Position numbers and translations under genes: made by a program
Assembly (NCBI GenBank): GCA_040766775.1
Contig: JAXGPT010000002.1
Coordinates: 34,607-98,606, forward strand
DNA length: 64,000 nt
Source: Bacillota bacterium
Lineage (GTDB): Bacteria > Bacillota > Clostridia > Ch29
Direction: 5' to 3'
Notes under the pieces: model-generated
The model's database searches: none
What the model saw: the letters and a program-made list of their open reading frames with translations, nothing else
Told to the model about the DNA's origin: nothing
Shown here: positions 1 to 36,853 of the stretch, in pieces
How the letters are laid out: each line of letters starts with the position of its first letter
Position numbering within the stretch: the stretch's first letter is position 1

Positions 1-1059
1 TATGACTTAAGCGAAGGTGGGGCCGATGAAAACAAAACCTTGGCTGGTATATTAAGCGACATAAACAAAAACACTGGCGCTGGAGTGCTAGCCTATTACG
101 ATTCGGTGACCGACAAGATAGTAATTAAGTCAAAGGACTACGGTGTGGGAGCTGAAGTTTCGATAGAAAACCTCGAGGGAAATCTTTTCGGAGCCGGCGG
201 TGCGCTGCAAATTGACGACGGCATAAGCTTTGGCAAGAACTCGCAGATAGAGCTGAACGGGGTTGTAATAAACAAGAACAGCAACAGATTCACAATAGAG
301 GGCTTAAGCTTTTATCTCAAGGAGACCTCCGACGAAACGGTAGTTATTAACGTGGCAAGGGATACCCAGGGGGCCTTCGATGCCATAAAGAACTTCGTGG
401 ATGAGTATAATAAAGTAATAGAAACTATAAACAGCAAGCTGTACGAGGAAAGGTTCAGGGACTATCCACCGCTGACCGATGAGCAGAAGGAAACCATGAG
501 TGACAGGGAAGTGGAATTGTGGGAGCAAAAGGCAAGGAGCGGGCTTTTGAGAAACGACCCCGTGCTGAGCTCGATAGTGAGCCAAATGAGGACCCTTATG
601 TATCAAAAGGTGGAGGGTACCGGTTCGGTTTACAATACTTTAAGCTCCATAGGTATAAAGACAAGGGACTACAAGGAATTTGGCAAGCTCCACATTGACG
701 AGAACAGGCTGAGGGAAGCCCTCAATAACGACCTGGAGGGTGTTGTGAGCCTGTTTAGCCAAAGCGGCGAGGTGGACAGTCAAAGGGGCCTTGCCGTCAG
801 ACTCTACGATGCTGTAAACAGCGGCATTACCCGGCTGTCCGACAAGGCGGGAAGCTCCACCAGCCTCATTACCTATGACAACAGCTATATAGGTAAAAGA
901 ATTAGGGACATGGACAAGAGAATTGAAAGCATGGAGGAATACCTATTCCAGCTTGAGGATAAGTACTGGAGACAATTCACTGCCATGGAGAAGGCATTGA
1001 ACGAGATGTACTCTCAAAGCATGTGGCTTTCACAGCAGCTTATGTTTTGGGGTAATTGA
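1..1059 (+). CDS. fliD: Flagellar filament capping protein FliD (hook-associated protein 2), C-terminal part; 5' end lies outside the window
   Basis: 339-aa ORF with typical FliD C-terminal coiled-coil; followed by fliS and a fliT-like gene as in B. subtilis. Confidence 0.75.
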   Translation, partial: YDLSEGGADENKTLAGILSDINKNTGAGVLAYYDSVTDKIVIKSKDYGVGAEVSIENLEGNLFGAGGALQIDDGISFGKNSQIELNGVVINKNSNRFTIEGLSFYLKETSDETVVINVARDTQGAFDAIKNFVDEYNKVIETINSKLYEERFRDYPPLTDEQKETMSDREVELWEQKARSGLLRNDPVLSSIVSQMRTLMYQKVEGTGSVYNTLSSIGIKTRDYKEFGKLHIDENRLREALNNDLEGVVSLFSQSGEVDSQRGLAVRLYDAVNSGITRLSDKAGSSTSLITYDNSYIGKRIRDMDKRIESMEEYLFQLEDKYWRQFTAMEKALNEMYSQSMWLSQQLMFWGN

Positions 1060-1469
1060 TAAACGGGGGGAGAAGCAAATTGGGAATTCCAAATGCGTAT
1101 AAAAGCTATAAGGAAAACTCGGTGACCACTGCCTGTCCTGAGGAATTGGTGGTGCTGATGTACAGGGGATTGGAAAAGTATATTAAACAGGGACAAATAT
1201 ACATAAAGGAAGGGAATTTCGAAAAAACCAACGAGGTACTGTTGAAGGCCCAGGACATTGTATGCGAACTGATGTTTTCGCTGGACATGGATGTCGAAAT
1301 GTCCGGGCCGTTGTATGCCCTTTATGACTTCTTGCTGAACTGCCTAATAGAAGGCAACATCAAGAAAGAAATCTCCATACTGCAGCAGGCCCTTGGCATA
1401 GTGTCCGGGCTTAGGGAAGCCTGGGAAGACGCTCTTATAAGCGTTAGACAGATAAAATACGGGAAATAG
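1056..1469 (+). CDS. fliS: Flagellar export chaperone FliS
   Basis: 137-aa ORF with FliS-like motifs (NAYKSY...TASPEEL); alternative TTG start near 1080 has a GGGGGAG RBS. Confidence 0.8.
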   Translation: MINGGRSKLGIPNAYKSYKENSVTTACPEELVVLMYRGLEKYIKQGQIYIKEGNFEKTNEVLLKAQDIVCELMFSLDMDVEMSGPLYALYDFLLNCLIEGNIKKEISILQQALGIVSGLREAWEDALISVRQIKYGK

Positions 1470-1483
1470 GGGGATACCTGGGG

Positions 1484-1957
1484 ATGGCCTACCTAAAAAA
1501 ATTAATTAGGTACAGCGAGGAAAAGCTGGATAAGCTGAAACAGATTGAAGAGATTACCATGCAGCAGAAGGCTGCTATTGACAGCCAAGACTATGCGGCG
1601 CTTAGTTCACTTGTTGAGGAAAAACAAAAAGTAATAGACTACATAGACTGGTGTGACAGCGCCTTTCAGGAGGAGCTCGAGAAGGTCAAAAGAAGACTGG
1701 GGGTAAAATCCATTAAGGACATAGGGGAAGCGGAGGACAAGGAAGAAAAGAAGGCCCTTGTTGACATTATTGGAATGGTCATTGAGACAATAGAGAAAAT
1801 ACAAGTCTTGGAAAGGGAGAACCAAAAGAAACTTCTCGAGTCCATGGACCAGGTAAAGGAAAAGTTAAGAAAAATAAGGAACGGGCAAAAAAGCGTTGCG
1901 GTATATGACAGCGGTATGGGCCTGGCATCCGGCAGTTTTTTGGATAAGAAAAAATAG
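1484..1957 (+). CDS. Coiled-coil flagellar protein, FliT/FlgN-like
   Basis: 157-aa charged helical protein in the position after fliS. Confidence 0.5.
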   Translation: MAYLKKLIRYSEEKLDKLKQIEEITMQQKAAIDSQDYAALSSLVEEKQKVIDYIDWCDSAFQEELEKVKRRLGVKSIKDIGEAEDKEEKKALVDIIGMVIETIEKIQVLERENQKKLLESMDQVKEKLRKIRNGQKSVAVYDSGMGLASGSFLDKKK

Positions 1958-1995
1958 GAGAGATTGATGAGAAACGCTGCCGATGGTATAATGAA

Positions 1996-2222
1996 ATTAA
2001 AGTTGAATAAAGCTTATTCGGGTCTGTGGTTGAAAGTCGATGCTAACCGCAGGCGAAGCGACCCACGTAAGCCGGTAAAAGTGCCGGTGAGCATGGTGCG
2101 GTTTAGGTGTAAGTCCTGCCTGCCGGGGATGGTCCCGGTGGAGACGGGGGGTAGTGAGGGCGTAATGCCGGAGCGAGACCTGCAGCAGGCGAGTGTGGGG
2201 TCAAAGACCAGGTCAGCCGAAT
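1996..2222 (+). ncRNA. Candidate structured ncRNA (raiA-motif-like) between fliT and hpf
   Basis: ~227-nt GC-rich block (~60% GC) in an AT-rich intergenic region; ends form a perfect 12-bp closing helix (aagcttattcgg...ccgaataagctt); the raiA motif is known to sit next to raiA/hpf in Firmicutes; the 86-aa ORF 1964..2224 over it looks spurious. Confidence 0.4.
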
Positions 2223-2330
2223 AAGCTTTATTTTTTATTTTACACTATTCGTTTTATTACTTCATATTTTTCCTTTTTGGGGTTAAAGTTGACATTAAAG
2301 TAATGATAATAAGCATAATTCGACATGGAT

Positions 2331-2427
2331 TTATCCACAGGTTTTGGACGCATTATTCACATCTATTAATGCAGAAACATGGGTTATTCACATAGTTATG
2401 CACATTATCCACATTTTTTGTTTCCAC
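2331..2427 (+). promoter_or_regulatory. DnaA-box cluster upstream of hpf
   Basis: TTATCCACA at 2331-2339 and 2405-2413 (perfect); TTATTCACA at 2354-2362 and 2385-2393 (8/9); weaker tTTCCACA at 2419-2427; all same orientation, ~25-30 bp spacing. Confidence 0.55.
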
Positions 2428-2643
2428 AAAACTGAACAATCGACTATCAAAATACTTAACTTTAACAATTCGGTGGTGGTAATATTTTTGTATTTTCCTG
2501 CGAATAGTTTTAATTGGACACAATTGGATATAAATATAATAAAAGATTATAATAAAATCAACACCTCAATACGAATAAACAACACTGCAATCTGGCATGT
2601 CAATTCTTAAAAACCATTACGATTATGATAGCATCTGGATTTT

Positions 2644-3171
2644 ATGCGTATTATTACGAGTGGGAAAAACATGGAAATAACCGATGCCTTTAGGGACACC
2701 ATTGAACGGAAGCTGGGAAAGCTGGGAAAGTTTTTTCATAAGGACACCGAGGCCCAGGTAACGCTCAACGTTGAAAAAAACCGGCACATAATAGAGGTCA
2801 CCATCCCCTTTGACGGAGTACTGATAAGGGCGGAAGAATGCACCGACGATATGTATACGTCCATAGACAAGGCAGTGGATAAACTGGAGCGCCAGATTAG
2901 CAAACATAAAACCAAGCTGGAAAAGAGATTTCGCGGAAGCAAGATGCTCTTTGAAAACATAGAGGCTACAGGGAAAGAGGACCTGGATAGGCCGAAGGTG
3001 GTAAGGACCAAAAGATTCGCCATGAAACCCATGCCCGTAGAAGAGGCTATTCTACAAATGGAACTTTTAGGCCATAACTTCTTTGTTTTTTCAAACGGTG
3101 ATACCGAAGAGGTAAACGTTGTATATAAAAGAAAGGACGGAAATTACGGTTTGATTGAGCCCATGTTCTAA
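2644..3171 (+). CDS. hpf: Ribosome hibernation promoting factor (long HPF/YvyD/RaiA family)
   Basis: 175 aa; N-terminus MRIITSGKNMEITDAFRD matches the YvyD N-terminus; position between fliT and secA as in B. subtilis. Confidence 0.85.
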   Translation: MRIITSGKNMEITDAFRDTIERKLGKLGKFFHKDTEAQVTLNVEKNRHIIEVTIPFDGVLIRAEECTDDMYTSIDKAVDKLERQISKHKTKLEKRFRGSKMLFENIEATGKEDLDRPKVVRTKRFAMKPMPVEEAILQMELLGHNFFVFSNGDTEEVNVVYKRKDGNYGLIEPMF

Positions 3172-3189
3172 ATGTAGTGAGAGAAATGT

Positions 3190-3220
3190 GGCAGTGGAAT
3201 TTATATTCCACTGCCTTTTT
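3190..3220 (+). terminator. Intrinsic terminator of hpf (also the insertion target of intron copy 1)
   Basis: 11-bp stem ggcagtggaat/attccactgcc, 4-nt loop, then TTTTT. Confidence 0.75.
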
Positions 3221-5149
3221 ATGTTCGCCCGACATGGGCAGTAACTAGGCGGTGAAAGTCCGCTATGGGCTTGGTAGTGGGAACCATTAGCTAAACAGCA
3301 AGGGTGTTCACCGTGAGGTGAAATTGAGGAAGCTGCAGGCAAAGTCCTGCACTGACGGACAGGAACTGTGACATAAGGTATACGTGGAACGGACGAGTTT
3401 GCCACCAAAACGAAGTCCAACACTACCCGAATTCCACGGTGTAAATGCAGCGGTGACATGGGATGAAAGTTACTGTTCTTAATCGGGAGGTCTGGGTTGG
3501 CAGGGGTACGTCAGGCAGGGAATGAATTTTCCTCATGATAACCCATGCAGCGATGTATGGCCGAGCCTGTCAGAAGTCAAGAAGAGGTCATAGTACCATA
3601 CCGGATATATACGGAATGGGAAGGACCGAACGGAAGGATGTTTTGGTATTGTGAAGCACACTACGAAATGCGATGAGCGCAGCCAACTTCATACTGAAGA
3701 CTTACCTGTGTGAGGATAGGTGGAACCTGAAAGAAGTATGGAGCGTAGAGCATTTCGTTTACGTCTTCCAAAGACCAAAACGATGGCAAATGAGTATGCT
3801 GGAAGCTTGCTTGATAAAATACTTCTGACCGAGACAACATGAACAAGGCATACAAGAGGGTTAAGTCAAACAAAGGCAGCCATGGAATTGATGGAATGAC
3901 AGTAGATGAACTTCTACAGTTTCTGAAAGAAAAAATGGTGAGCAAATCAGGCAGTGTATCCGAGGGTACTTACGCAAGCCAAAACCTGTGCGGCGGATAG
4001 AGATAACAAAGCTGGCGGGAAAAAGACTACTTGCATACCAACAGTAGTGGACAGAGTAAGTGCAACAGGCAATAGCCCAGGTATTAAGCCCAATCTTGGA
4101 GAAGCGTGTTCTCGGAATTGAGCTTGCGGTTCAGGCCGGGCGACGCAAAACAGGCGGTATTGAAATGCATGAATACATAGAAGCAGGCTACGACTGGGGC
4201 TGTGGATATACGGACTTTGCGAAATACTTTGATACCGTAAACCACGACAAATTGATGGGCCTAATCCATAAAACCGTTAAGGATAGGGAGTAATATCACT
4301 TATCCGCAAATTCTTCAATCAGGAGTAATGATAAATGGAGTAGTGGTGGAAACGGAAGAGGGCTGTCCGCAGGTGGCCCCTTGGCGCCCGCTGCTATCCA
4401 ATATCATGCTGAATGAACTGGATAAGGAACTAGAAAGAAGGGGGCTTAAATTTCTGCCGGTACGATGATGTAAACATATACGTCAGAAGCAGGAAGGCAG
4501 CAGAAAGGGTAATGGCCAGTGTTACACGGTTTATCGAAGACGATTTAAAACTTCTCTAAGGTAAACCGTGAAAAGAGTACTGTTGATACAGGCTATGGCG
4601 GCTGAAATTTTTAGGTTTTCCTTTTACCGTAAAGATAGTGGTATAGGGATAAGGGTGCACCCAAGGTCACTACGAAGCTTAAATCCAAGCACAAAGGAGA
4701 TAACCTCAAGGAGTAATGCTATGAGCATGGAATACAGGATATTTAAACTGAACCAGAGCATTACCGGCTGTAAACTACTTTAGCCTGGCGGACATGAAAG
4801 CAATAGCTGCTAAACTTGACGGGTGGATAAGGCGCAGGATAAGAATGTGCTATTGAAACAGTGGAAGAAAGTTAGTACAAAGCACAGAAACCTTGTAAGG
4901 TTAGGTATAGATAACTACAAGCAAGTGGCTTTAGCAGTATACAACACGAGAAAAGCTACTGGTATACAGCCATTAAAGGCTTTATCCTTATTAAATCCAT
5001 CACCAATGAATACCTAAAAAGTTTGGGTCTAAAAGTCAGTATCCGAAAGATATTCATTAGTCCATTAAATATCTCGCTGAACTGCCGTATGCCGGACGGC
5101 ACGTACTATATGGTGAGAGGACGGGGGTTAATCATCCCTCCTACTCGAT
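3221..5149 (+). mobile_element. Group II intron copy 1 (class-C-like; inserted right after a terminator); reverse-transcriptase/maturase ORF decayed
   Basis: ~1.93 kb, >90% identical to 25371-27298; group II RT motifs (MNKAYKRVKSNKGSHGIDG.., PTVVDRVVQQAIAQVLSPI..) split by many stops/frameshifts; YADD motif deleted in this copy; domain V/VI-like 3' end ...gccgtatgccggacggcacgtac...ctactcgAT. Confidence 0.8.
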
Positions 5150-5309
5150 TTTTGTTGGTAAAATAAAGGAATTCATGAATTTAAGTAGAATTATATAAAT
5201 ATCCGTTTGGAATAGGAACCGGTGTAGTTAACAGTAGACTGATGGGAAGGAAAAGTATACCGGCTTACCATAACTGCTGAAGAGAGGGAAACAATGTGGT
5301 AAAAGCAGA

Positions 5310-5681
5310 ATGTCACAGAGACTGCCTTACAAGAACTTATTAATGATATTGAGGGTAATAGTTTCTTCCAAGGTCAAGCTGGATGATACAGGTAACCTAG
5401 TAGAAATACATGCACTGGCCGACAAGTCTAGGAATGCCAAGCAGATAGTGAGGGATATCCAGTCGGCTGTTACAGCCAAATTTGACCTGGAGATTGACCA
5501 TAGGATAATAAGCATTGCCCAGCTGAGTTGTGACAGTGTAATGCAAAAGGACCTGCGTATTGTATTCAAGGGAATGGAGGTTGCAAGCAAGGGGCTGGAG
5601 CTTGATGTTAAGGTTATGCTTTTCACAGAGAGAAGGATTACTGCGGCAGTCAAAAGGGTATTAACACGACTACCAGCATAA
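5310..5681 (+). CDS. Hypothetical protein
   Basis: 123-aa ORF; no family recognised. Confidence 0.35.
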   Translation: MSQRLPYKNLLMILRVIVSSKVKLDDTGNLVEIHALADKSRNAKQIVRDIQSAVTAKFDLEIDHRIISIAQLSCDSVMQKDLRIVFKGMEVASKGLELDVKVMLFTERRITAAVKRVLTRLPA

Positions 5682-5713
5682 ACAGAACCATAGCCCAGGC
5701 GACACTGAAAGCC

Positions 5714-5938
5714 TTGTCAGATTTTTTAAATATCGGGGAAATCTTTGTGGTGGAGGATGTGGGGACTCTCAACATAGCCAAAACAAATGTGGTGGTGGTA
5801 GCTGTTACGTGTGTCGATAAAAACGGGGAGCAGCTCCTTATAGGTTCTTCTATGAATTTGGGGGATATAAAGGAAGCAGTGGTCAAAGCAACTTTAGACG
5901 CGGTAAACAGAAGGATAACCAAATTAACGGGCAGATAA
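5714..5938 (+). CDS. Hypothetical protein
   Basis: 74-aa ORF directly downstream of 5310..5681; no family recognised. Confidence 0.35.
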   Translation: MSDFLNIGEIFVVEDVGTLNIAKTNVVVVAVTCVDKNGEQLLIGSSMNLGDIKEAVVKATLDAVNRRITKLTGR

Positions 5939-6149
5939 CTCTATAATTCAGGCCGGCACAGATAGCTTAAGCGGAGATGGTATATTATTTAGTTAGGCGT
6001 GAAAGCAGACAAATGAGTAAAGGAGGCTATATCCATGGCAAAGGTAATAAGCGTTCTGTTGTCGTTGATGACTTCTGTACTTAGCTGGCGGCGCCGGCTG
6101 GAGTTGGAAATAAAACCTATTATGCCGGCCTGAATTGGAGTTATGTCAG

Positions 6150-7420
6150 CCTAATGAGAATAAACAATGGACAGACTTCCTGTGAAAGCGTGAAAATTGA
6201 TAATTGGAGCAACTGTTATTATTGCAATAATATTAGGGATATTCTTTTAACGTATGGGGACTGGAAAAAGATATTGGAGAAGTAGTGTTTTTTGTTGTTT
6301 TGGCTACAATAGGCGAGTCATTAAGCATCGCTTTACCTAACCAAATCAGCGTTTCTGTGGTGTTCTCGTACATTTTGTTTGCATTGTAATGCTGTTCAAT
6401 CCTCTGACGGCAGGTTTACTAGTCGGGGGCTGGCCATTTAATGTTTGGTGTATAAGAGAGAAGGAAAATCGGGCAGTCTATTCAATACCCTTTATAAAAC
6501 AGTCTTTAATGTATGCACTGCTTTCGTTTCATCGGTTGTATCCGGTATAGTATACAGCTACCTATATGTGCCCGGGGGATATATAAACCTGGCAAGTGTT
6601 ATACTGCCGATTTCAATAGCATCTCTTGTTTACCTGGCGGTAAATTCTTCCACTGTTGTGCTATTGATTTCAAATCTGTTGAACAAGACCATCAGGTCTA
6701 TTTGGAAACAGAATGTTAATTGCAGGCAAAACTACCTAATAATGTCACCCCTTGGAGTAATACTGGCTATTGCATATCAAAACTACGGGTACTTTGGAAT
6801 ACTTTTATTTTTGGCCCGCTGCTTATGGCAAGATACCTTTAAACTGTATATCGAATTGAAGAGCAGCTACTCCGAAAACCATACAGGCCCTGTCCAGTGG
6901 ACACACTGAGGCCAAGGACCCGGTGACCAGCGGTCATGCCGAGCTGCAAGCTTATATCTTCGACAGTTATAGCCTGGGGGATGGGACTTTCGGAAGCCAG
7001 GATAGACAATATAATGTATGCGGGAATTCTCCACGATATCGGTAAAATAGGTATATCCGACAATGTTTTGCAAAAACCGCAGGCTTACCGGATGAATATG
7101 ATAAGATAAAGGAGCATTCCGCCATTGGTGCAGATATATTAAGGGACATTGACTTCTTAAGGGATGCTTCCAGAATAATCCGGCATCACCATGAGCGCTA
7201 TGACGGTAAAGGATATCCTGACGGTATAGGCGGAGAAGGGGTGCTCATTGAATCATATATCCTTGGAGGGGCCGATGCCTTTGATGCCATGACCAACGAC
7301 AGGCCGTACAGAAAAGCGTTGACAGCGGAAGGTCTTCCGGGATGATTATGAACAGGCGGGAAAGCAGTTCCATCCCCGGGTGGCGGATACTTTTGTTAAA
7401 CTATTTGATAAGGGTTGTTG
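6150..7420 (+). pseudogene. Membrane-anchored HD-GYP phosphodiesterase, multiply frameshifted
   Basis: TM-rich N-terminal pieces (6150-6909) then HD-GYP motifs in shifting frames: LHDIGKIGI, HHERYDGKGYPDG, GADAFDAMTNDRPYRKA. Confidence 0.6.
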
Positions 7421-8013
7421 AAACGTGCTGATTGAAGGCGCCTTGTTTTCGCTAATAATAGGCAAATTACGCGGGGGAAAGTTTAAGAGCTTGTGTAGGT
7501 GACAATACACCACCCATGGATGTTTATACTTCACTTTGTAATAGAATTCGAACCCTGTTTGCGGTAGCGGCCGGTATAATAGAGGTTGGTGCCAGTGACT
7601 GTATATACCTTCATTCCTTGTCATACTTATTCTGTTTATAGCGATAATATCCAACAGGAGCATCCGGCCATGTGGATCTTTTCTTGTGTGCTGTTAAATT
7701 TCATTGTGATATTCATAAACGGAGGGGCAAATGCCCATATCCTTATAAGGCCTGCAGAGGGCGGGACTGAAAAAGAAGCACAGATTATTTCCGCCGGCGG
7801 TATCATTACGCACCAGGCCCCTTACCCCTGGATACCAAGCTCTTTCTTGCGGATGTAATAGTTCTTCCTCCGCCATATCCTTTCCTGCTCGATGAGCATA
7901 GGCGACTTCATTATTTGCCCTAGTAATACTGTTTGTCCAAAAGGCAATGCTGCAAGAAAAATAGCGAGGCAGAGCCGGATGATATGTTTAAATATAAAGC
8001 AGAATCTAAATAT

Positions 8014-8037
8014 CGCCCCGTTAAGGGGTTTTTTTAA
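8014..8037 (+). terminator. Intrinsic terminator inside the ~700-bp non-coding gap upstream of secA
   Basis: cccc-gttaa-gggg hairpin followed by T7. Confidence 0.5.
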
Positions 8038-8144
8038 TGTGCCGCCTCACCTTAATTTTAAAGAGGTATGCCACATTTCTCTTAATTGCCTATTGGTTTA
8101 TTTCATGATAGAATTTACTTTGAATTAAAGACGAGGTGTTGGAT

Positions 8145-10639
8145 ATGGCAAATTTTTTATCAAAAATCCTGGGCAATACTAAATGAGAGGGAAATTAAAA
8201 AGCAACAAAACGGTGGAAGCGATAGAGGCACTGGAGGGGCAGATGAAGGCCCTCAGCGATGAACAGCTTAGGCAAAAGACCGATGAGTTTAAAAAAAGGC
8301 TTGCTGCGGGAGAAACCCTTGACGACCTGCTGGTGGAAGCCTTCGCGGTGGTAAGGGAGGCGTCGGTCAGGGTTCTAAATATGAGGCATTTCCCGGTGCA
8401 GCTTGCGGGAGGCATTGTGCTGCACCAGGCAGGATTGCCGAAATGAAAAACTGGCGGCTGCAAACCCGGTAGCGACACTGCCGGGTTACCTTAACGCCCT
8501 CTCCGGAAAGCGGGTTCATATAGTCACCGTTAACGATTACTTCCGGGAAGCAACAGGGACAGCCAGTGATGGGCGAAGTGTACAAGTTTCTGGGGCTGGA
8601 GGTCGGGTTTACGTCGGCCCGGACTTTGAACAGCGTAAAAAAGTCCTACAACGCTGACATAACCTTCGGTACCAACAACGAGTTTGGTTTTGACTACCTG
8701 AGGGATAACATGGTTATATACAAGGAGCAGATGGTGCAAAGGGGACTTAACTATGCCATAATAGACGAGGTGGACAGCATACTGATAGACGAGGCCAGGA
8801 CCCCGTTGATAATTTCCGGTGTCGGCGAGAAGTCCACCAAGCTTTATTCGGTGGTGGACACCTTTGTAAGGGGTCTAAGACCGGAGGAACACTTCACGGT
8901 GGACGAAAAGGCCAACACCGTAACGCTGACCGAAGAGGGAGTAAGGAAGGCGGAACAATATTTCAACCTGGAAAACCTGGCGGACCCGGAGAACATGGAG
9001 ATATCCCACCATATAAACCAGGCCCTCAAGGCTCACCGGCTTATGTCCCGTGATATTGACTACGTGGTGAAGGACAACCAGGTTATAATAGTTGACGAGT
9101 TTACCGGAAGACTAATGTTCGGCAGGCGGTACAGCGACGGGCTGCACCAGGCCATAGAAGCCAAGGAGAGGGTTAAGGTTGAAAGGGAATCCAAAACCCT
9201 GGCCACCATAACCTTCCAGAATTATTTCAGGATGTACAGCAAATTGGCAGGAATGACGGGTACCGCCAAGACCGAGGAGGAGGAATTCCGGGCTATCTAT
9301 GGCATGGACGTTGTGGAGATACCCACTAACATGCCCATGATAAGGGACGACCTGCCGGATATTGTATACCGGACCACCGAGGGAAAGTTTAAGGCGGTGC
9401 TAGAGGACATTATACAAAGGCATGCGGCTGGGCAGCCTATACTTGTGGGAACCATTAGCATAGAAAAATCAGAACTTTTGAGCAGGATGCTGCAAAGAAG
9501 GGGTGTGCCCCACGAGGTTCTAAACGCCAAGTACCATGAGAAGGAAGCCCAGATTATAGCACAGGCGGGTCAACGGGGTGCGGTGACCATATCCACCAAC
9601 ATGGCGGGCAGGGGTACCGACATAGTTCTCGGTGAAGGCGTTAAGGAACTGGGCGGACTGCATGTAATAGGCACCGAGCGGCATGAGAGCAGGAGGATTG
9701 ACAACCAGCTTCGAGGCCGGTCGGGAAGGCAGGGGGACCCCGGTTCTTCGCAGTTTTACATTTCCATGGAAGATGAACTGATGAGGCTTTTCGGGTCGGA
9801 GCGGATAATGGGCATGATAGACAAACTGGGCTTTGATGACACACAGCCCATTGAACACCCCATCCTGAGCAAGTCGATAGAGAATGCCCAGAAAAAGGTG
9901 GAGGCTCGAAACTTTGATATAAGGAAGCATGTGCTGCAGTATGACGATGTAATGAACAAGCAGAGGGAAGTAATTTATGCCCAGCGCAGAATGGTGCTGG
10001 AGGGGGAGAACCTGAAAGAACAGGTCCTCGAGATGATAAGCGACGTCATAGATTCAATGCTGGATATTTATACCTCCCACAGCCAGTACCCCGAGGAATG
10101 GGACTTAAAGGGCCTTGAAACCTACGCGAGAAAGGTGTTTGTAATTAAAGACCCTCTGCCCTTTGGAAACCCCGAGGACCTAACCCGGGATATTCTTAAG
10201 GATATGCTTATGGAAAAGGCCATTGGAATTTATAACGAGAAGGAAGAAAAGATTGGCTCCGAACAGATGAGGGAACTGGAAAGGGTAATACTGCTCCGGG
10301 TTGTGGACATGAAGTGGATGGAAAACATAGACAACATGGACCAGCTGAGGCAGGGTATTGGCCTTAGGGCGTACGGGCAGGAGGACCCGGTTATAGCGTA
10401 CCAGAAGGAAGGCTACGAGATGTTCCAGGAAATGATAAATTCAATAAAGGAAGACACGGTAAGCTACCTGTTCGGGGTTAGGATAGAGCAGGTGCCAAAA
10501 AGGAAAGGGTGGCCCAGCCGGTGGAGGCAAGCCAGGGGGAAGGAGCCAAGAAACCGGTCAAAAAAGAGGGCAAGGTGGGCAGGAACGACCCCTGTCCCTG
10601 CGGAAGCGGCAAGAAATTCAAAAAGTGCTGTGGTAGGTA
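8145..10639 (+). CDS. secA: Preprotein translocase ATPase SecA (at least 5 frameshifts in this assembly)
   Basis: [10 protein letters not shown].., [62 protein letters not shown] and the Zn-finger tail [18 protein letters not shown] all present but in different frames; RBS before ATG 8145. Confidence 0.85.
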
Positions 10640-10651
10640 AGGAGTGAAATG

Positions 10652-13146: not shown

Positions 13147-14293
13147 GGGTGGAAAGGTTTTTACAATGGAGGGAGAAGTCCTCGACGGGGGATTTGTACT
13201 TATAGAAAAGGGCAGGATATCCAAAGTAGGGCAGGGGGAACCGCCGGGGCGTTACCTTGATATGGCACAGCTAATTGACGCCGAAGGAATGTTCATAATG
13301 CCGGGGTTTGTGGATGCCCACTGCCATATTGGTCTTTTTGAGGACGGCATAGGCTTTGAAGGGGAGGACGGTAACGAGGCGACCGACCCGGTAACGCCCC
13401 ATTTGAGGGCCATAGATGCTATAAACCCCATGGACAGAGCCTTTGAGGAAGCGGTCCGGGGCGGTGTAACCACGGCGGTGACCGGGCCTGGCAGCGCAAA
13501 CGTGCTGGGCGGAGAGTTTGTGGCGATAAAAACGGTGGGCGGCAGCGTTGAGGACATGGTTATAAAAAACCCCGTCGCCATTAAGTGCGCCTTCGGGGAA
13601 AACCCAAAAAGGGTGTACTATGAGAAAAAGACCGCTCCGATGACCCGGATGGCAACGGCGGCCCTGCTGCGGGAAGCCCTTATGAAGGCAAAGAGGTACA
13701 TGGAAAGAAAGGAACGGGCCAAGGAGGACAAGCAGCCGGAACTGGATGTGAAAATGGAATCGCTTGTAAGGGTGCTTAGGAAGGAGCTGCCGCTCAAGGC
13801 CCATGCCCACAGGGCGGATGATATAATGACCGCCCTTAGGATAGCCCGGGAGTTTGACATAGACATGACCATAGAGCACTGCACCGAGGGGCACAGGATA
13901 ACCGAGACGCTGGTGCGCGAGGGACGAGGCCTTGTGGTGGGTCCCGGTCTTAGCTCCCGGTCCAAGTATGAGCTTAGGGACCTAACTTTCAAGACTCCGA
14001 GCATCCTGTCGGCTGCCGGCCTGGATATAGCCATTATGACCGACCATCCGGTGATACCCATACAATACCTGCCGGTGTGCGCGGCCCTTGCGGTGAAGGA
14101 AGGTATGGACGAGTACAAGGCCCTGGAGGCCATTACAATAAATCCAGCCAGGATTACCGGCATAGCCGACAGGGTAGGGAGCCTGTTGCCGGGGAAGGAT
14201 GCGGATATAGCCATTTTTGACGGGCACCCCTTCAACTATACCACCAAGGCCCGGTATGTAATAGTAAACGGCAACCTAGTGTATAGTAATTAG
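13133..14293 (+). CDS. Amidohydrolase-family metal-dependent hydrolase
   Basis: MMLIKGGKVF...FVDAHCHIG, typical amidohydrolase N-terminus; ORF track extends upstream but overlaps the MFS gene. Confidence 0.65.
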   Translation: MMLIKGGKVFTMEGEVLDGGFVLIEKGRISKVGQGEPPGRYLDMAQLIDAEGMFIMPGFVDAHCHIGLFEDGIGFEGEDGNEATDPVTPHLRAIDAINPMDRAFEEAVRGGVTTAVTGPGSANVLGGEFVAIKTVGGSVEDMVIKNPVAIKCAFGENPKRVYYEKKTAPMTRMATAALLREALMKAKRYMERKERAKEDKQPELDVKMESLVRVLRKELPLKAHAHRADDIMTALRIAREFDIDMTIEHCTEGHRITETLVREGRGLVVGPGLSSRSKYELRDLTFKTPSILSAAGLDIAIMTDHPVIPIQYLPVCAALAVKEGMDEYKALEAITINPARITGIADRVGSLLPGKDADIAIFDGHPFNYTTKARYVIVNGNLVYSN

Positions 14294-19096: not shown

Positions 19097-20131
19097 TTGT
19101 TTAATGGGAATTACCAAGCCAATATCAATTTGCAAGGAGTGATTATTATCAAAAGGATAGCTGTAGTTACCACCGGGGGAACCATTGCCATGAAGGCGGA
19201 CCATACCGGTCTTGCCAGTCCCTCCTTAAGCGGCGATGACTTAATAGCTGCCATACCTTCGCTGAAGAAAAGGGCGGCCGTTGACGTGTTTGCTTTCTGT
19301 AATGTTCCCAGTTCATACATTACCATGGACCACCTTGTCCGGTTAAGAAATTATATTGATCAGTTGGGAGAGCAGGGTTATGCAGGAGTAGTTGTAACCC
19401 ATGGCACCGATACAATGGAGGAGACGGCATATTTCCTGGATTTAACGATGCAAAGCAGTATTCCGGTTGTGTTAACCGGTGCCCAGAGGAACCCGTCTCT
19501 GGTTAGTTCCGACGGTCCGGCAAACCTGCTGGATTCAATCCTGGTGGCGGCGGATGACAGGGCGCACGAAATGGGGGTGCTCATTGTTTTTGCTTCCGAA
19601 ATTGTTGCGGCAAGAGAGGCTACCAAGTTTCACAGGACCAGGGTGGACACCTTCAAGAGCTTGGAGTTCGGACCCATGGGGGCAGTAAACAACGACAGGG
19701 TTATATGGTGTAGGAAGCCGCAGCGGGAGCCAAGGTACATAATTGAGAAGGCTGACAAAAGGGTGGACATAGTGAACTGTTATATCGGAGCCGATTCTGC
19801 CATGATATACAGCAGCCTGGAAAAGGGTACCGAGGGTATAGTGATAGAAGCCCTGGGCGCCGGTCACGTGGCACCGGCAATGCTGGAAGGAATAAAAAGC
19901 GCCCTTGAAAAGGGCGTACCGGTGGTGCTGACCTCAAGGGTTCCCGTGGGCAGGCTGCTCACCGATACCTACGGGTACGAAGGGGGCGAGAAGCATGCCT
20001 GCAGCCTGGGGGTAATACTGGGCGAAGACCTTTCGGCATGGAAAGCGAGGATAAAGCTTATTGTACTATTATCCGCAGGCCTATCGCCCACCCAGATAAG
20101 GCGTGAATTCGAGCATAGGTTTTACGACTAG
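19097..20131 (+). CDS. ansA: L-asparaginase
   Basis: IAVVTTGGTIAM...VVTHGTDTMEETAYFL motifs; true start likely internal near 19139. Confidence 0.8.
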   Translation: MFNGNYQANINLQGVIIIKRIAVVTTGGTIAMKADHTGLASPSLSGDDLIAAIPSLKKRAAVDVFAFCNVPSSYITMDHLVRLRNYIDQLGEQGYAGVVVTHGTDTMEETAYFLDLTMQSSIPVVLTGAQRNPSLVSSDGPANLLDSILVAADDRAHEMGVLIVFASEIVAAREATKFHRTRVDTFKSLEFGPMGAVNNDRVIWCRKPQREPRYIIEKADKRVDIVNCYIGADSAMIYSSLEKGTEGIVIEALGAGHVAPAMLEGIKSALEKGVPVVLTSRVPVGRLLTDTYGYEGGEKHACSLGVILGEDLSAWKARIKLIVLLSAGLSPTQIRREFEHRFYD

Positions 20132-22036
20132 AAAGGAAGATTTTTCGATGACTTCTTCCCACTCCGTGTACAGTGAATCCAGTTTATCACGGAGGCCTTT
20201 CAGCTTTTCGTTAAGCTCTTTTATTTTACCAGGGTCAGAATACGCCTCCGGCTGGCACAGGAGATGTTCCAGCCGGGTTATTTCTTCTTCTAACTCGTCA
20301 ATCTCCTTTTCCAGCCTGTCCAGTTTAAGTTTTTCCTGTTTCCTTTTTTCCCGCTCTTCCCTTTCCTTTTTTCTTTGATGTTTCATAGCCGTTTTTGTCG
20401 GGGAGGCTGTTTCGCTGATGCTTGCTTCTTCTTCCTGCTGCTGTTTTTTCATCCGGTAATAGCTGTAGCCTCCGTGGAAAAGGTTTATACCTTCCGGGGT
20501 AAGCTCGGCTGTCTTGCTGGTAACCCGGTCAAGAAAATACCGGTCGTGGGATATTACAAGGACCGTGCCGGTATAATTGCAAAGGGCGTCCTCCAGGGCA
20601 TGCCTTGACTTAATATCAAGGTGATTTGTGGGCTCGTCCAGCAGCAGCAGGTTTGACCGGGACAGCATGAGTTTCGCCAGGGCCACCCTGCTTCTTTCGC
20701 CTCCGCTTAGGCAGTCAATTGTCTTGTACACGTCATCGCCGCTGAACAAAAAGGCTGCAAGTACATTTCTTACCTGGGTGACCGGAAGGTCCGGGCTTTG
20801 GTCCCATACCTCGTCAAGCACCGAATTGGAAAGGTTAAGGTTCTCTTGCTGCTGGTGGTAGTACTCAATATTTGTATTATGGCCCTTTATGATGCTGCCC
20901 GAATCTGGCTGCAATAAGCCGGATATTATGTTAAAAAGGGTGGTTTCCCGATCCGTTGGGGCCAATTATTCCTATCCTTTCGCCCCGATAGACCTTTAAG
21001 TTTACGCCGTAAAACAATTGGCTGCCGGGGAAGGACTTGCAAACGTTCTCCAGCGACAGTACATTCCTTCCGCTTTAGCAAGCGGCTCAAGCTTTATCGA
21101 AATTCCTTCTGTTTCATGCAGGTTGATCCGGCATCTCAATACGGGACAGCAATTTTTCCCGGCTTTTAGCCCTTTTTATTGTTTTTTCCCTGTTATATGA
21201 CTTCAGCTTTTGTATAATTTCCCGCTGTCGGTCCATTTCACTTTGCCTGTTTTTAAAGTCCCTCAGCTGCAGTTCCATCATTACCTGTTTTTGCTTAAGG
21301 AAATCGGTGTAATTGCCCCTGGAACTGGTACAGGGCTGTATCGTCCAGTTCGAATATCCCGGTGCATACCTGTCCAGGAAATACCTGTCGTGGGAAATAA
21401 CCATCACCGCGCCCTCATAGCCGACGAGAAAGTTCTCCAGCCATTCCACCGCATTTAAATCCAGGTAGTTGGTGGGCTCGTCCAGCAGCAGCAGGTGATA
21501 TTTTTTGAGCAATAGTTCCGCCAGCGCGACCCGGGTTTTTTGACCGCCGCTTAGAAGTTCAACCGGCATTTTAAACTGGGCTTCTTCAATACCTAGCCCT
21601 AAGGGCACCCCATCTGGCTTTTGTATTCATAGCCCCCTCTTTCCGCGAACTCCTCGGTAAGGTCCCCGTATTCCTTCATAAGCTGTTCCAGGTCCCTGCC
21701 GGACGCCCTGGCCATGCGGGATTCCAGTTGGGATATTCGGATTTCCATTTCCAGAAGAAATGCGAAGTTTTTAACAAGATGCTCCCACACCGTTACCCCA
21801 GGGTTAAAATGGGGATGCTGGGGCAAAAGCCCTATGGTAGTATCCGCAGCGGTGTATATGCTTCCCGAATCCGGCTGCTCCAGACCGGAGATTATCTTGA
21901 AGAGGGTTGACTTGCCTGCCCCGTTGGCCCCTACCACGCCAATCCTGTCCCCGGGATGTATTCTAAAATTAATATTATTTAATATTGATTCTACACCAAA
22001 ACTTTTTGCTGATATTATTACATGACAGCAGTGCAA
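20081..22036 (-). CDS. ABC-F family ATPase (YdiF/Uup/EttA-like), two ABC domains + C-terminal coiled coil; frameshifted in this assembly
   Basis: Three consecutive minus-strand ORFs: 21599-22045 (domain 1: GANGAGKST), 21114-21608 (LSGGQKTRVALA...LLLDEPTNYLD), 20081-20965 (domain 2: LSGGERSRVALA..LLLDEPTNHLD..ISHDRYFLD + KE-rich coiled coil); TTG start with AAGGAG RBS. Confidence 0.75.
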
Positions 22037-22162
22037 TTCTTTCACTCCTTTTACAGGGGCAGTTGTTTAGCAACTATCGACTACCAACTAAAATGATATA
22101 TATCATTTTAACAAAATGGCAACTGATAATAAAGAAAACTGGGGTAAATGACCAGATTCTTA

Positions 22163-22192
22163 TTGGTAATTATTTAACAAACTGATATAATT
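22163..22192 (+). promoter_or_regulatory. Rex operator overlapping the rex promoter
   Basis: TTGGTAATTATTTAACAA (22163-22180) matches the Rex box TTGTTAA-N4-TTAACAA in 17/18 positions; followed by extended -10 TGATATAAT (22184-22192). Confidence 0.55.
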
Positions 22193-22254
22193 TAATTGAA
22201 GACTGGAAATAGATATTCATAGCAGCGGAATACTATGGGACGAGGAGGGGTAGA

Positions 22255-22890
22255 ATGGAGAAAATGAGAAGCAATATATCCATGGCTGTAATCAGGAGAT
22301 TGCCGAAATACTATAGATACCTCAATGAGCTGATGGAAAAGGGAGTGACAAGAATATCCTCTATGGAATTCGGGAGATCCTGGGATTACCGCTTCGCAGA
22401 TAAGACAGGACCTGAACTGTTTCGGCGGTTTCGGACAGCAGGGCTATGGGTACAACGTAAAGGAGCTTGTGGATGAAATTGCCAATATACTGGGCCTTAA
22501 CAAAACCAATAACGCGATAATAGTGGGTGCGGGCAACCTAGGCCAGGCTATTGCCAACTACAGCGGGTTCCGTGGCTCCGGTTTTATATTAAAAGGCATG
22601 TTCGATATAAACCCAAGACTGGTGGGTATAAGCATCAGGGACATTAAGATAATGGATATTGACGAAATGAGCGAGTTTATTAAAAAAGCCGGATATAAAT
22701 GTTGGCATAATATGCACTCTACGAGGCGCAGGAAGCCGCCGACAGGTTGACCGGCGAAGGGATTAAAGCAATATGGAACTTTGCACCCAGCGACCTGGAC
22801 GTGCCCGAGGATGTAATAGTGGAAAACGTTCACTTAAGCGAGAGCCTCATGGTCTTGGCGTACCTTATGAATCAGAGGGAGAACATGTGA
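22255..22890 (+). CDS. rex: Redox-sensing transcriptional repressor Rex (at least 3 frameshifts)
   Basis: IRRLPKYYRYLNELMEKGVTRISS; ...ITASQIRQDLNCFGGFGQQGYGYNVKELVDEI..IVGAGNLGQAIANY (Rossmann); C-terminal ..IKAIWNFAP..VENVHLSESL in a third frame. Confidence 0.8.
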
Positions 22891-22976
22891 GATAATAAAT
22901 AACATTAACAAGCAAATCGCGGCTGCCCGGAAACGGATTCAAGGCTGCGATTCGGTTTTTCATGGAAGTGAGGTAA

Positions 22977-23795
22977 GTGCCTATGCAGGTGGTATCCTTG
23001 GTTGGGTCCAGTGGGACCGGAAAGAGCTACAGGGCATTGATAGTAGCATATGAAAACGACATCGATTACCTGATTGACGACGGGTTGTTGATAAAGGGGA
23101 ACAAGATTGTTGCCGGGACCTCCGCGAAGAAGGAGAATACCAAAATAGCCGCGGTAAGAAGGGCTCTTTTCATGGAGCCTGCGCACAGGGAAGAGGTAGT
23201 GAAAGCCATTAAGGCCCTTGACCCCGATAGGATGTTAATACTGGGCACATCCGACGAAATGGTTGATAAAATAACCAGGGTCCTAGGCCTTAGCCCGCCC
23301 CAAAAAAGGCTGTACATTGAGGATATAGCCTCAGAGGAGGAGATAGAGCTTGCCCGGCACCAGCGGCGTTCAAAGGGCAAACACGTCATACCGGTTCCTA
23401 CTTTGGAAGTCAAAAAGGACTTTTCCGGGTATTTCCTGGATACCCTTAGAATATTCACCAGGAAGAGGGACGATTCCGTTACCGTTGACGAAAAAACTGT
23501 TGTGCGGCCGACGTACAGCTATCTCGGCAAGTATACCATATACGGCAGGGCTATTATTCAAATAGCCCGGGCGGCGGGCGAGAGGATTGAGGGGATAAAA
23601 AGGATTTTCAATACCGAAGTCGCCATCCATCCCAACGGAATAGTGATAAATACCGACGTGGCGGTGGTCTACGGTACCGCTATTATGGAGAAGATACCCG
23701 CCATGAAAAATGTCATCAAATCTGAGATTGAGCACATGACATCGCTCAACGTGCTGGCCATCAACGTTACGGTAAAGAGTTTGGTTATGGAATAG
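22977..23795 (+). CDS. Two-domain protein: N-terminal P-loop NTPase (GSSGTGKS) fused to C-terminal Asp23/Gls24-like domain
   Basis: Walker A at residues 9-16; C-terminal ~90 aa (TIYGRAIIQIARAAG..VAVVYGTAIMEKIPAMKNVIKSEIEHMTSLNVLAINVTVKSL) resembles the Asp23 family. Confidence 0.55.
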   Translation: MPMQVVSLVGSSGTGKSYRALIVAYENDIDYLIDDGLLIKGNKIVAGTSAKKENTKIAAVRRALFMEPAHREEVVKAIKALDPDRMLILGTSDEMVDKITRVLGLSPPQKRLYIEDIASEEEIELARHQRRSKGKHVIPVPTLEVKKDFSGYFLDTLRIFTRKRDDSVTVDEKTVVRPTYSYLGKYTIYGRAIIQIARAAGERIEGIKRIFNTEVAIHPNGIVINTDVAVVYGTAIMEKIPAMKNVIKSEIEHMTSLNVLAINVTVKSLVME

Positions 23796-25342: not shown

Positions 25343-25370
25343 GGGCAGACCGATCGGTCTGCCCTATTTT
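25343..25370 (+). terminator. Intrinsic terminator of gdh (insertion target of intron copy 2)
   Basis: gggcagaccgatcggtctgccc hairpin followed by TATTTT. Confidence 0.7.
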
Positions 25371-27298
25371 ATGTTCGCCTGACATGGGCAGTAACTAGGC
25401 GGTGAAAGTCCGCTATGGGCTTGGTAGTGGGAACCATTAGCTAAACAGCAAGGGTGTTCACCGTGAGGTGAAATCTGGAGGAAGCTGCGGCAGGCAAAAA
25501 AAGTCCCGGCACCCCTGACGACAGGAACTGCATACAAGGCATACGTGGAACGGACGAGTTTGCATAACAAAACGAAGTCCAACACTACCCGAATTCCACG
25601 GTGTAAATGCAGCGGTGACATGGGATGAAAGTTACTGTTCTTAATCGGGAGGTCTGGCAGGTACGTCAGGCAGGGAATGAATTTTCCCCATGATAACCAT
25701 GCAGCGATGTATGGCTGATTGTCAGAAGTCAGCAGAGGTCATAGTACCATACCGGATATATACGGAATGGGAAGGACCGAACGGAAGGATGTTTTGCATT
25801 GTGAAGCACACTACGAAATGCGATGAGCGCAGCCAACTTCATACTGAAGACTACCTGTGTGAGGATAGGGTGGAACCCGAAAGAAGCATGGGATAAAGAG
25901 AGTATTTCGTTTACGTCTTCCAAAGACCAAAACGATGGCAATGAGTATGCCGGAAGCTTGCCGATAAAATACTTGACCGAGACAACATGAACAAGGCATA
26001 CAAGAGGGTTAAGTCAAACAAAGGCAGCCATGGAATTGATGGAACGACAGTAGATGAACTTCTACAGTTTCTGAAAGAAAAATGGTGAGCAAATCAGCAG
26101 CAGCAGGTATCCGGGAGAGGGTACTTACAAGCCAAAACCCGTGCGGCGGATAGAGATACCAAAGCCGGGCGGCGGCAAAAGACTACTTGGCATACCAACA
26201 GTAGTGGACAGAGAGTGCAACAGGCAATAGCCCAGGTATTAAGCCCAATCTTTGAGAAGCAGTTCTCGGAATTGAGCTAGTGGGTTCAGGCCGGGAAGGG
26301 ACGCAAAACAGGCGGTATTGAAATGCAAGGAATACAGAAGCAGGCTACGACTAAGGATATTGACCTTGCGAAATACTTTTGATACCGTAAACCACGACAA
26401 ATTGATGGGCCTAATCCATAAAACCGTTAAGGATAGGGGGAGTAATATCACTTATCCGCAAATTCCTTCAATCAGGAGTAATGATAAATGAGTAGTGGTG
26501 GAAACGGAAGAGGGCTGTCCGCAGGGCATTCCCTTAAGCCCGCTGCTATCCAATATCATGCTGAATGAACTGGATAAGGAACTAGAAAGAAGGGGGCTTA
26601 AATTCTGCCGGTACGCCGATGATGTAAACATATACGTCAGAAGCAGGAAGGCAGCAGAAAGGGTAATGGGCCAGTGTTACACGGTTTATCGAAGACGATT
26701 TAAAAACTTAAGGTAAACCGTGAAAAGAGCAATTGCTGATAGGCCATGGCGGCTGAAATTTTTAGGTTTCTCCTTTTACCGTAAAGATAGTGGTATAGGG
26801 ATAAGGGTGCACCCAAGGTCACTAGCGAAGTTTAAATCCAAGCTAAAGGAGATAACCTCAAGGAGGCAATGCTATGAGCATGGAATACAGGATATTTAAA
26901 CTGAACCAGAGCATTACCGGCTGGGTAAAGTCACTTTAGCCTGGCGGACATGAAAGCAATAGCTGCTAAACTTGACGGGTGGATAAGGCGCAGGATAAGA
27001 ATGTGCTACTGGAAACAGTGGAAGAAAGTTAGTACAAAGCAACAGAAACCTTGTAAGGTTAGGTATAGACAACTACAAGGCATGGCAGTATGCCAACACG
27101 AGGAAAAGCTTACTGGCACACACAATAGCTTTATCCTGATAAATCCATCACCAATGAATACCTAAAAAGTTTGGGTCTAAAGTCAGTATCCGAAAGATAT
27201 TCATTAGTCCATTAATATCTTTTCGAACCGCCGTATGCCGGACGGCACGTACGGTGGTGTGAGAGTGACGGTGGGGTTAATCATCCCTCCTACTCGAT
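25371..27298 (+). mobile_element. Group II intron copy 2 (class-C-like; inserted right after a terminator); RT ORF decayed but keeps YADD
   Basis: Same 5' end as copy 1 directly after the T-tract; RT pieces include ..EGCPQGIPLSPLLSNIMLNELDKELERRGLKFCRYADDVNIYV..; multiple frameshifts; 3' end ...ctactcgAT. Confidence 0.8.
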
Positions 27299-28312
27299 TT
27301 CCTCAACCTTTACTTCGTATGTTTTACCGTTTATTTTAAACCTTAATAGTCTTGTGGAAACCACCTCGCTGGACACACAGGTCTTTTTGATTGCGGATAT
27401 TTTATCCTCCATCTCGCGTATCAGCTGCTGTGCCTCGGGTACCGTCACCTTTACAAACCTTATTTTGTCCCCGGGTTTTGCCTGGGCAATCCTGGGCAGG
27501 TCCGCCCAAATGACGTTTTGCAATCTTGGTATAACCCCCGGTGGTTTGCCGATCGGCCAGCATAATTATTGGCTGCCCGTGGCCCGGCACCTGGACAGCA
27601 CCCATTGCTATTCCGTCCGAAATGATATCCCCGCCCTTGACGTGCTCGATATTTTGCCCTTTAACCTATATCCCATCCTGTCACATTCATTGGTTACCCT
27701 CGTAATAATCAGAGAGGAAGGTATTTATACCATCAATGGTAAAACAGTCCTCCTGGGGGCCTAAAGTAACCCTTAGTTCCAGTGTGGTGGAATATTCGGG
27801 AACAAATTCCGCAGGCGCCTACCCCCAGCCTGGCTGGACTTCGATAGATGCCAACCTCAAGTATGTCCCCCGCTTTTAAAGGTCTGCCCTTAAAACCGCC
27901 GATTTTTCCCCTGGTATAAGTGGATTTGCTTCCCATAACCTCGGGAACTTTTATGCCGCCGGAAAAGGCTATATAGCTCCTGCACCCCGACCAGACCCCT
28001 GAAAGGAAAGTTTGATCCCTTATTTACAATAATGCTTTCCCACATGGGTACCGCTCCGTCGTTTATTACCGGGGACAGGTTGCCGCCGGTGATGGCTATG
28101 GCCATCTGGTCCATAAATTCAATTTGGGGGCCCATCATGGTGGCTTCCAAAACTGCTTCCAGTTCGTCATTCCCCACCAGTATGTTGCTTACCCTGTGGG
28201 AGAAGGTATCCATTACACCGGAAACGGGAACACCATACTGCTGATACCCGTATCTTCCGCTGTCCTCAATCAGCGTTAAAAGGCCCGGGTTTATTATTTT
28301 TACGTTTCCCAT
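27290..28312 (-). CDS. pxpC: 5-oxoprolinase subunit C (PxpC/KipA family), frameshifted
   Basis: N-terminus MGNVKIINPGLLTLIEDSGRYGYQQYGVPVSG..; GQPIIMLADRQTTGGYTKIA and VIWADLPRIAQAKPGDKIRFVKV in other frames; stop codon lies inside the intron 3' end. Confidence 0.7.
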
Positions 28313-34908: not shown

Positions 34909-36537
<1,629 letters not shown>

Positions 36538-36546
36538 TAGAAAAAA

Positions 36547-36572
36547 GAAGCCGTTTTCACGGCTTCTTTTTT
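36547..36572. terminator. Bidirectional intrinsic terminator (groEL and convergent cotF-like gene)
   Basis: gaagccg-ttttca-cggcttc followed by TTTTTT. Confidence 0.75.
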
Positions 36573-36838
36573 CAGCTTATGGGGGTGGCAAACCTTCGCT
36601 TCAGCATCTCAATATCCTGGCTGCTGGCGTTTCTTGTTTTATGCCATCCCCTTTTTTGTATGGCCTTTAGTATGTCAAGACGCATCCTGTGGGTTTCATT
36701 CAAAATATTCTCCAATATATGGCTAAAAGCTTCCCCCGTGCTCTCGTTTATGCACCCGTTATACGAGCTTGAAAGCTGTTTTTCCGAAAGCAAAAGGTCT
36801 ATCAGGATTTCCCTGTCTCCAAAATAGCCGGTATCCAT
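36572..36838 (-). CDS. Spore coat protein, Coat F domain family
   Basis: ..DLLLSEKQLSSSYNGCINES..RMRLDILKAIQKRGWH.. matches the Coat_F pattern. Confidence 0.65.
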   Translation of the reverse strand: MDTGYFGDREILIDLLLSEKQLSSSYNGCINESTGEAFSHILENILNETHRMRLDILKAIQKRGWHKTRNASSQDIEMLKRRFATPIS

Positions 36839-36853
36839 CGTAGGGAAACCTCC

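Follow-up and report, generated by a model that had tools for sequence, protein, structure and literature searches.

The 64,000-nt window analysed here (contig JAXGPT010000002.1 of assembly GCA_040766775.1) comes from an uncultured lineage of Clostridia that inhabits anaerobic digesters; among named organisms, Thermosediminibacter and Tepidanaerobacter have the closest SecA proteins, with identities of about 67%. The locus of interest shows the gene order fliD, a flgN-like gene, hpf, a group II intron, a gene for a 214-aa protein, a MASE9/HD-GYP gene, a DUF5317 gene and secA. The hpf gene (2644–3171, + strand) is intact and encodes a ribosome hibernation promoting factor of 175 aa (Pfam Ribosomal_S30AE and Ribosom_S30AE_C); directly 5' of it lies a raiA-motif RNA (2013–2225, + strand; Rfam RF03072, 182 bits), which marks the start of a transcription unit reading toward the intron. 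Behind hpf stand the 11-bp hairpin of an intrinsic terminator (3190–3215, + strand; dG -19.4) and the T-run TTTTTAT (3216–3222, + strand), the last four bases of which, TTAT (3219–3222), are the intron-binding site IBS1 and the end of the 5' exon; the hairpin is the structural part of the DNA/RNA target of the intron, which is of class C (IIC), and occupies the position of IBS2. Exact-protein look-ups returned matches for the FlgN-like and Nramp proteins and none for the hpf product or for the 272-aa ORF at 22977–23795. Farther downstream, the window contains a purine riboswitch aptamer (49361–49461, 84 bits).

The Rfam models RF02001 and RF01998 for domains I–IV of group II introns match the window twice on the + strand, at 3307–3626 and 25457–25777. 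The regions around these matches, 3223–5149 (copy 1, 1927 nt as written) and 25373–27298 (copy 2, 1926 nt as written), represent a single element present twice, in each case starting 7 nt past a strong terminator hairpin. For copy 2, this is the terminator of the glutamate dehydrogenase gene gdh (25343–25372, + strand), with the hairpin at 25343–25364 followed by TATTTTAT and with IBS1 TTAT at 25369–25372. A scan of a genome collection with 25 nt of the intron 5' region produced 15 loci from diverse Firmicutes; all 13 related copies in other genomes start with GTTYG (GTTCG or GTTTG), and the sequences upstream of them diverge immediately before the first G, so that the intron begins at G3223 in copy 1 and at G25373 in copy 2. 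The 3' end, …CUACUCGAU, falls at 5149 in copy 1 and at 27298 in copy 2, where the Rfam model for domains V–VI stops exactly. The first-pass annotation of this DNA had placed an intron behind the hpf terminator, with its 3' end at 5149 and a second copy at the same type of junction. All of this holds (for copy 1, given the hairpin at 3190–3215, the TTTTTAT run and the RF02001 and RF01998 matches), but both 5' ends have to be shifted downstream: the junction is not TTTT|ATGTTCG at 3221 but, according to the relatives and the empty site, TTAT|GTTCG at 3223, 2 nt farther on, and copy 2 starts at 25373 rather than at 25371.

The empty site comes from five assemblies (L028–L032) whose identity to the window is 99.5% across positions 1–3170 and 99.5–100% in the flanks, and in which the hpf site reads …TTTTTAT|TTTTATTGG…. 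The empty allele in these assemblies is …CTGTCTTTTTAT|TTTTATTGGTAAAATAAAGG (in a longer context, …GGCAGCGGGATTTAAACTCCGCTGTCTTTTTAT|TTTTATTGGTAAAATAAAGG…), and the occupied allele of the window is …CTGCCTTTTTAT[intron]TTTTGTTGGTAAAATAAAGG…; the comparison of the two fixes both intron boundaries and shows that there is no target-site duplication. The 3' exon of copy 1 (5150–5160, + strand) starts with T (IBS3) and extends the T-run of the terminator (TTTTGTTGG). A metagenome scan with the hpf hairpin yielded occupied alleles only, because the hairpin of the empty allele is different; the empty allele was found through the FlgN-like protein. The boundaries of copy 1 thus derive from the Rfam matches, the alignment of the two copies, the 5' ends of the relatives and the empty site.

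Several loci from the scan depart from the common pattern. At L002, L006 and L007, the terminator is followed by the first ~50–110 nt of the intron 5' end and then by unrelated sequence; these loci may be truncated copies or may belong to another intron subfamily that shares the 5' end. L015 (JABVCK010000012.1, ~330–1810 in the orientation of the intron) is a related intron in which the protein frame switches after ~292 aa into the C-terminal part of a different reverse transcriptase (RT) (…FERYADDGIIHC…); nesting or recombination of introns may explain it. Within the window, GC skew is positive nearly throughout, and the + strand, which carries both intron copies, is probably the leading one; the orientation of the introns fits insertion into the lagging-strand template, an observation of low weight given that there are two copies and that the host genes are co-oriented.

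The established hallmarks of IIC introns are a CGC triad in place of AGC in domain V, with a distal stem 2 bp shorter, a conserved AGGAA in an unpaired bulge of domain I, an IBS1–EBS1 pairing of only 3–4 bp (PMC1702495), replacement of IBS2 by a terminator stem-loop, with no EBS2, and a single EBS3–IBS3 pair. Copy 2 displays the domain V features (27228–27257, + strand): AACCGCCGUAU aligns to the RF00029 consensus gaGAGCCGUAU with CGC replacing AGC, the distal stem-loop is 4 nt shorter than in the general model, the domain folds at -33.2 kcal/mol (z -2.9), and the same domain V sequence is present in L020, an intact metagenomic intron of the family. RF00029, which covers domains V–VI, matches copy 2 with 43 bits (threshold 40), and domain VI (27261–27298, + strand) has its branch A at 27292. 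Domains V and VI of copy 1 (5082–5149, + strand) include an intact domain VI with the bulged A at 5143; its domain V as written has no canonical fold, and a search of it with RF00029 gave no match, which we attribute to sequence error. The AGGAA motif appears as AAUCUGGAGGAA in copy 2 and as AAUU--GAGGAA in copy 1 (3320–3333, + strand), both aligned to the unpaired UCUGAAGGAA of RF02001.

The EBS1–IBS1 pairing spans 4 bp. EBS1 of copy 2 is AUAA (25564–25567, + strand), and the TTAT of the hpf site is complementary to it, as well as to the AUAA of L005 and L020; in L005, three of the four EBS1–IBS1 pairs form. EBS1 and IBS1 covary between genomes, with AUAA/UUAU in copy 2 versus UCAA/UUGA in the Ruminococcus copies L003 and L011. 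The first base of the 3' exon is T in all eight copies with a 3' flank, consistent with a fixed EBS3 = A. In the EBS1 stem-loop of copy 1 (3395–3415, + strand), the window reads CACC, not AUAA. The domain I–III core of copy 1 (3307–3626, + strand) scores 109 bits with RF02001 (3307–3477) and 53 bits with RF01998 (3539–3626), compared to 155 and 72 bits in intact relatives; with RF02001, both copies reach 109–110 bits, about 45 bits below those relatives.

The intron protein was reconstructed, at 425 aa, by joining the reading frames of both copies. RVT_1 and GIIM are its sole domain matches, TIGR04416 also matches, and no endonuclease domain is present, the end of the protein coinciding with the C-terminus of the GsI-IIC RT; the reconstruction is 98% identical to P0001, the intact metagenomic protein of the L020 intron. 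Among solved structures, the GsI-IIC RT scores highest (493 bits), followed by the E. rectale IIC maturase (471 bits), both aligned end to end. Altogether, four IIC chains representing three IIC RTs score 493, 471, 355 and 349 bits (GsI-IIC, the full-length and N-terminal fragment chains of E. rectale, and an R. intestinalis fragment), while LtrA (class IIA) and a IIB maturase reach 157 and 139 bits. This comparison, which measures similarity and is not a tree, agrees with the class C behaviour proposed in the first-pass annotation: by its similarity to labelled structures, the protein appears to belong to clade C, and, taken together with the RNA hallmarks, this similarity makes the assignment of the intron to class C well supported.

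Target choice was assessed by folding the 45 nt upstream of 15 copies of the family, which represent 14 distinct sites, and recording a hairpin of dG <= -9 ending at most 11 nt from the junction, together with at least 5 T among the last 9 nt. This combination occurs upstream of 14 of the 15 copies but at only 1.4% of 3000 control positions, and the mean upstream dG is -21.6 kcal/mol at the family sites versus -8.0 kcal/mol at the controls, so the preference for terminators anticipated from the two junctions of the window extends to other genomic copies. The intact L020 copy adds one further terminator site, again ending in TTAT. There was no sign of the attC targeting that characterises the IIC-attC subclass among the sites examined, all of which are hairpins with T-runs 3' of ordinary genes, and no integron context was seen at the inspected loci.

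As written in the window, neither copy encodes a complete protein. The RT/maturase frame of copy 1 (3783–5068, + strand) is broken by ~17–19 frameshifts, and copy 2 contains ~15 frameshifts and one stop. The earlier reading of a fragmented intron protein is accurate as a description of the frames in this sequence, but the breakage is almost certainly a matter of sequence quality and not a property of the element. The YADD region, also reported as lost, is there in both copies: copy 2 has RYADDV (26612–26623, + strand), and copy 1 has RY-DDV (4461–4469, within the segment 4458–4475), where a single Ala codon is absent. Compared with the 1913-nt intron of L020, which we use as the intact master, copy 1 shows 80 substitutions and 39 indel events; for copy 2, the counts are 49 and 28. 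The two copies share only 6 substitutions and 3 indels, and each of these 3 alters the length of a homopolymer (of A, G or C); the remaining differences are private. Among the private substitutions, transitions outnumber transversions 1.5–1.9 to 1, against a ratio of 2.2 in the flanks, a difference that cannot tell error from mutation.

Independent same-strain assemblies cover part of the damaged sequence. At the site of copy 2, the short-read assemblies L024 (GCA_900198705.1) and L026 contain the final 143 nt of the intron and match L020 there at 100% identity, and the window has three 1-nt indels in the same stretch. Inside both intron copies, short-read same-strain assemblies break or hold Ns: in L024 (FZPS01000165.1), 100 Ns (13245–13344) follow the 143 nt of the intron 3' end, and L025 carries 1873 Ns (6230–8103 in reverse-complement coordinates) across the intron interior. 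Because the same-strain references thus stop short of both interiors, the intactness of these is inferred rather than seen.

The damage is not confined to the introns. The first difference in copy 1 appears 103 nt into the intron, at 3325, and up to that point the junction (3171–3324) follows cleanly on hpf. Beginning at 3325, a dense tract with ~3% indel events extends over ~5.6 kb (3325–8900, no strand assigned), through the intron interior, the 214-aa gene, the MASE9/HD-GYP gene and DUF5317, that is, three further genes past copy 1, and into the first ~140 codons of secA, up to the Walker A region. In this essential housekeeping gene (8183–10647), the initial codons, including Walker A, are split over frames (residues 21–97 and 141–790 lie in different frames, with the Walker A segment between them scrambled), after which 693 aa are intact. 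Past ~8900, 4.8 kb of the window are identical to L023, L028, L029 and L031, except for one indel and one substitution. Around copy 2, the comparison with the same-strain scaffold L025 reveals stretches with zero differences alternating with patches in which indels equal or outnumber substitutions (24.5–25.0, 27.5–29.5 and 31.0–34.0 kb); genes inside the patches, among them gdh (417 aa), pxpB and pxpC, which are intact in L024 and L025, look like pseudogenes in the window. Comparison with same-strain contigs was used for this purpose in place of a codon-usage Viterbi frameshift scan, which proved too crude, confusing gene boundaries with frameshifts and missing the intron ORF. A further error-rich patch of this kind lies at 19500–22900, and frame-switch counts alone point to a possible one at 58900–61100. 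A segment of a different kind, 36500–36999, differs from L025 by 18 substitutions and no indels within an otherwise identical stretch and resembles a natural variable spot.

What could have produced this damage? Under one explanation, both copies are genuinely decayed relics with a frameshifted RT, immobile unless an intact copy elsewhere supplies the protein, as the first-pass annotation had supposed. Bacterial genomes often contain fragmented group II introns, the ~19 and ~15 frameshifts as written and the RF02001 scores of 109–110 bits against 155 in intact relatives would fit such a history, and the transition bias of the private substitutions also fits real mutation; moreover, copy 1 has no domain V match and a mutated EBS1 and, if its sequence were real, would be dead as a ribozyme. 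However, relic introns do not account for damage that continues through four neighbouring genes, including Walker A of secA, and then gives way to 100% same-strain identity, nor for the patches in gdh, in pxpB and pxpC and at 31–34 kb, affecting genes that are intact in same-strain assemblies. The spectrum is also discordant: indel events about equal or exceed substitutions, in contrast to the 211 substitutions and 2 gaps that separate the clean flank from a relative of ~93% identity. Furthermore, the indels common to both copies are homopolymer lengths, and the 3' end of copy 2 is intact in independent assemblies. Thus, decay of the copies themselves is very improbable, and the claim of a decayed RT and a probably immobile copy is not supported, given the private nature of the indels, the extension of the damage through the neighbours and the intact sequence in same-strain assemblies. 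A degenerate intron was rejected as a candidate on the grounds that the indels reach neighbouring genes, including secA, and are absent from overlapping same-strain assemblies; likewise, natural pseudogenisation or localised hypermutation as the source of the indel tracts was rejected in view of secA, the abrupt return to 100% identity and the intact same-strain genes.

Such a pattern would be expected of a long-read assembly that is hybrid or was poorly polished, in which raw-read errors would be kept in repeats and adjacent stretches and unique regions would be exact. In the organism itself, both copies are probably intact and match the 1913-nt master at more than 99.5% identity. Taking the evidence together, we are confident that the window contains a bona fide IIC retroelement twice, and that the apparent decay of both copies most likely reflects assembly error.

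The hpf locus raises a separate question, namely, whether copy 1 belongs to this strain at all. The 52 nt between the hpf stop codon and the intron show 0–1 differences from intron-bearing relatives of ~93% identity (L013 and L016–L019 carry the intron at hpf) and 30 differences from the near-identical strains, in which the site is empty and the terminator hairpin is different. Copy 1 could then be an assembly chimera, in which a read from a co-occurring relative that bears the intron was used to bridge the gap between hpf and secA; these 52 nt, and the five assemblies that are 99.5–100% identical in the flanks with an empty hpf site and a different hairpin, speak for such an origin. Yet the junction at 3171–3324 shows a clean, unbroken transition from hpf, and, on the right side of the dirty tract, 18 of the 19 informative sites in the window have the same-strain allele, which ties the intron-containing sequence to the right flank of this strain. 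In addition, hpf itself (2620–3170) is a third haplotype, with 12 differences from the near-identical strains, 21–24 from the ~93% relatives and no indels, which is better explained by natural recombination or polymorphism than by a chimeric join. We consider a chimera very improbable, about as much so as decay.

The surroundings of the occupied allele (2620–3222) look like a recombination mosaic, and, because the occupied allele carries the hairpin of the ~93% relatives, the polymorphism has the look of an allele that is old or was exchanged, not of a recent insertion; the alignments suggest a joint transfer of the intron and its terminator from one lineage to another through homologous recombination. 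That two lineages each gained the intron at the hpf terminator by a separate insertion was considered and is disfavoured, given that the occupied allele of the window has the hairpin of the other lineage. Once corrected for error, the copies behind at least four terminators (those of hpf and gdh and the L008 and L020 sites) would differ by less than 0.5%. It is a closer call whether the family is active at present in these uncultured Clostridia from digesters: we regard current activity as a serious possibility that falls a little short of being probable.

Copy 2 also reaches into a protein-coding gene. The 3' end of the convergent pxpC-like gene (27290–27523, - strand) places its stop codon 9 nt inside the intron, so that the protein ends in …EEIE*; reading the codons of the predicted empty site, it would end in …EEIK*, with the stop two codons later. 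The insertion thus exchanges the final two codons of the convergent gene, along with its stop, without harm. A reading of this ORF as a truncated biotin-carrier gene, which would have implied a rearrangement at the 3' end of copy 2, was rejected; the ORF forms the C-terminal end of pxpC, whose product has 343 aa in L024 and L025.

Extrapolating from the mechanism described for IIC introns, the life cycle of this element can be outlined as follows (PMC1702495, PMC4424553, PMC10190682). Transcription would reach the intron by running past the hpf or gdh terminator, and the intron protein, acting as a maturase, would assist splicing. The resulting ribonucleoprotein (RNP) would recognise a DNA stem-loop followed by TTAT/T and reverse-splice into single-stranded DNA at the folded terminator; cDNA synthesis would presumably be primed by nascent strands at the replication fork, since the intron protein has no endonuclease domain. 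Positions behind terminators would entail little harm to the host. The element offers a natural example of EBS1/IBS1 covariation together with an occupied-versus-empty polymorphism at the terminator of a housekeeping gene. On the practical side, it would be a mistake to take mobile elements, gdh, pxpB/C or secA for pseudogenes on the strength of this assembly.

The intron itself is real and typical of class IIC, a kind that is already known. In the Oceanobacillus iheyensis intron O.i.I1, on which IIC crystal structures are based, domain V and the EBS1 loop (AUAA/UUAU) are presumably nearly identical to those of the window intron. O.i.I1 was studied as an ORF-less construct, whereas the window element carries the full gene for the intron protein. 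Bacillus halodurans B.h.I1 resembles it in inserting a few nt past a terminator stem-loop, with copies behind different terminators, and shares the 3–4 bp IBS1–EBS1 pairing, the CGC triad, the shortened domain V, the AGGAA bulge and the endonuclease-less RT/maturase (PMC1702495); the two differ in host lineage and in the 5' end, which is GUUCG here rather than the usual GUGYG. The GsI-IIC RT of Geobacillus stearothermophilus (PDB 6AR1) aligns with the reconstructed protein over residues 52–466 versus 2–415 (488–493 bits), with the same domain order and YADD, but is a different member of the family, and the 98%-identical protein P0001 comes from metagenomes only. With respect to both B.h.I1 and the Eubacterium rectale IIC intron, the window element differs in being known from sequence alone. 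The E. rectale protein, MarathonRT, aligns end to end with 468–471 bits (PDB 7UIM/7UIN; 7UIM is the E. rectale IIC RNP), and, although EBS1 is AUAA here, the structure embodies the same target logic, that is, a DNA stem-loop, a 4-bp EBS1–IBS1 pairing and a single EBS3–IBS3 pair (PMC10190682).
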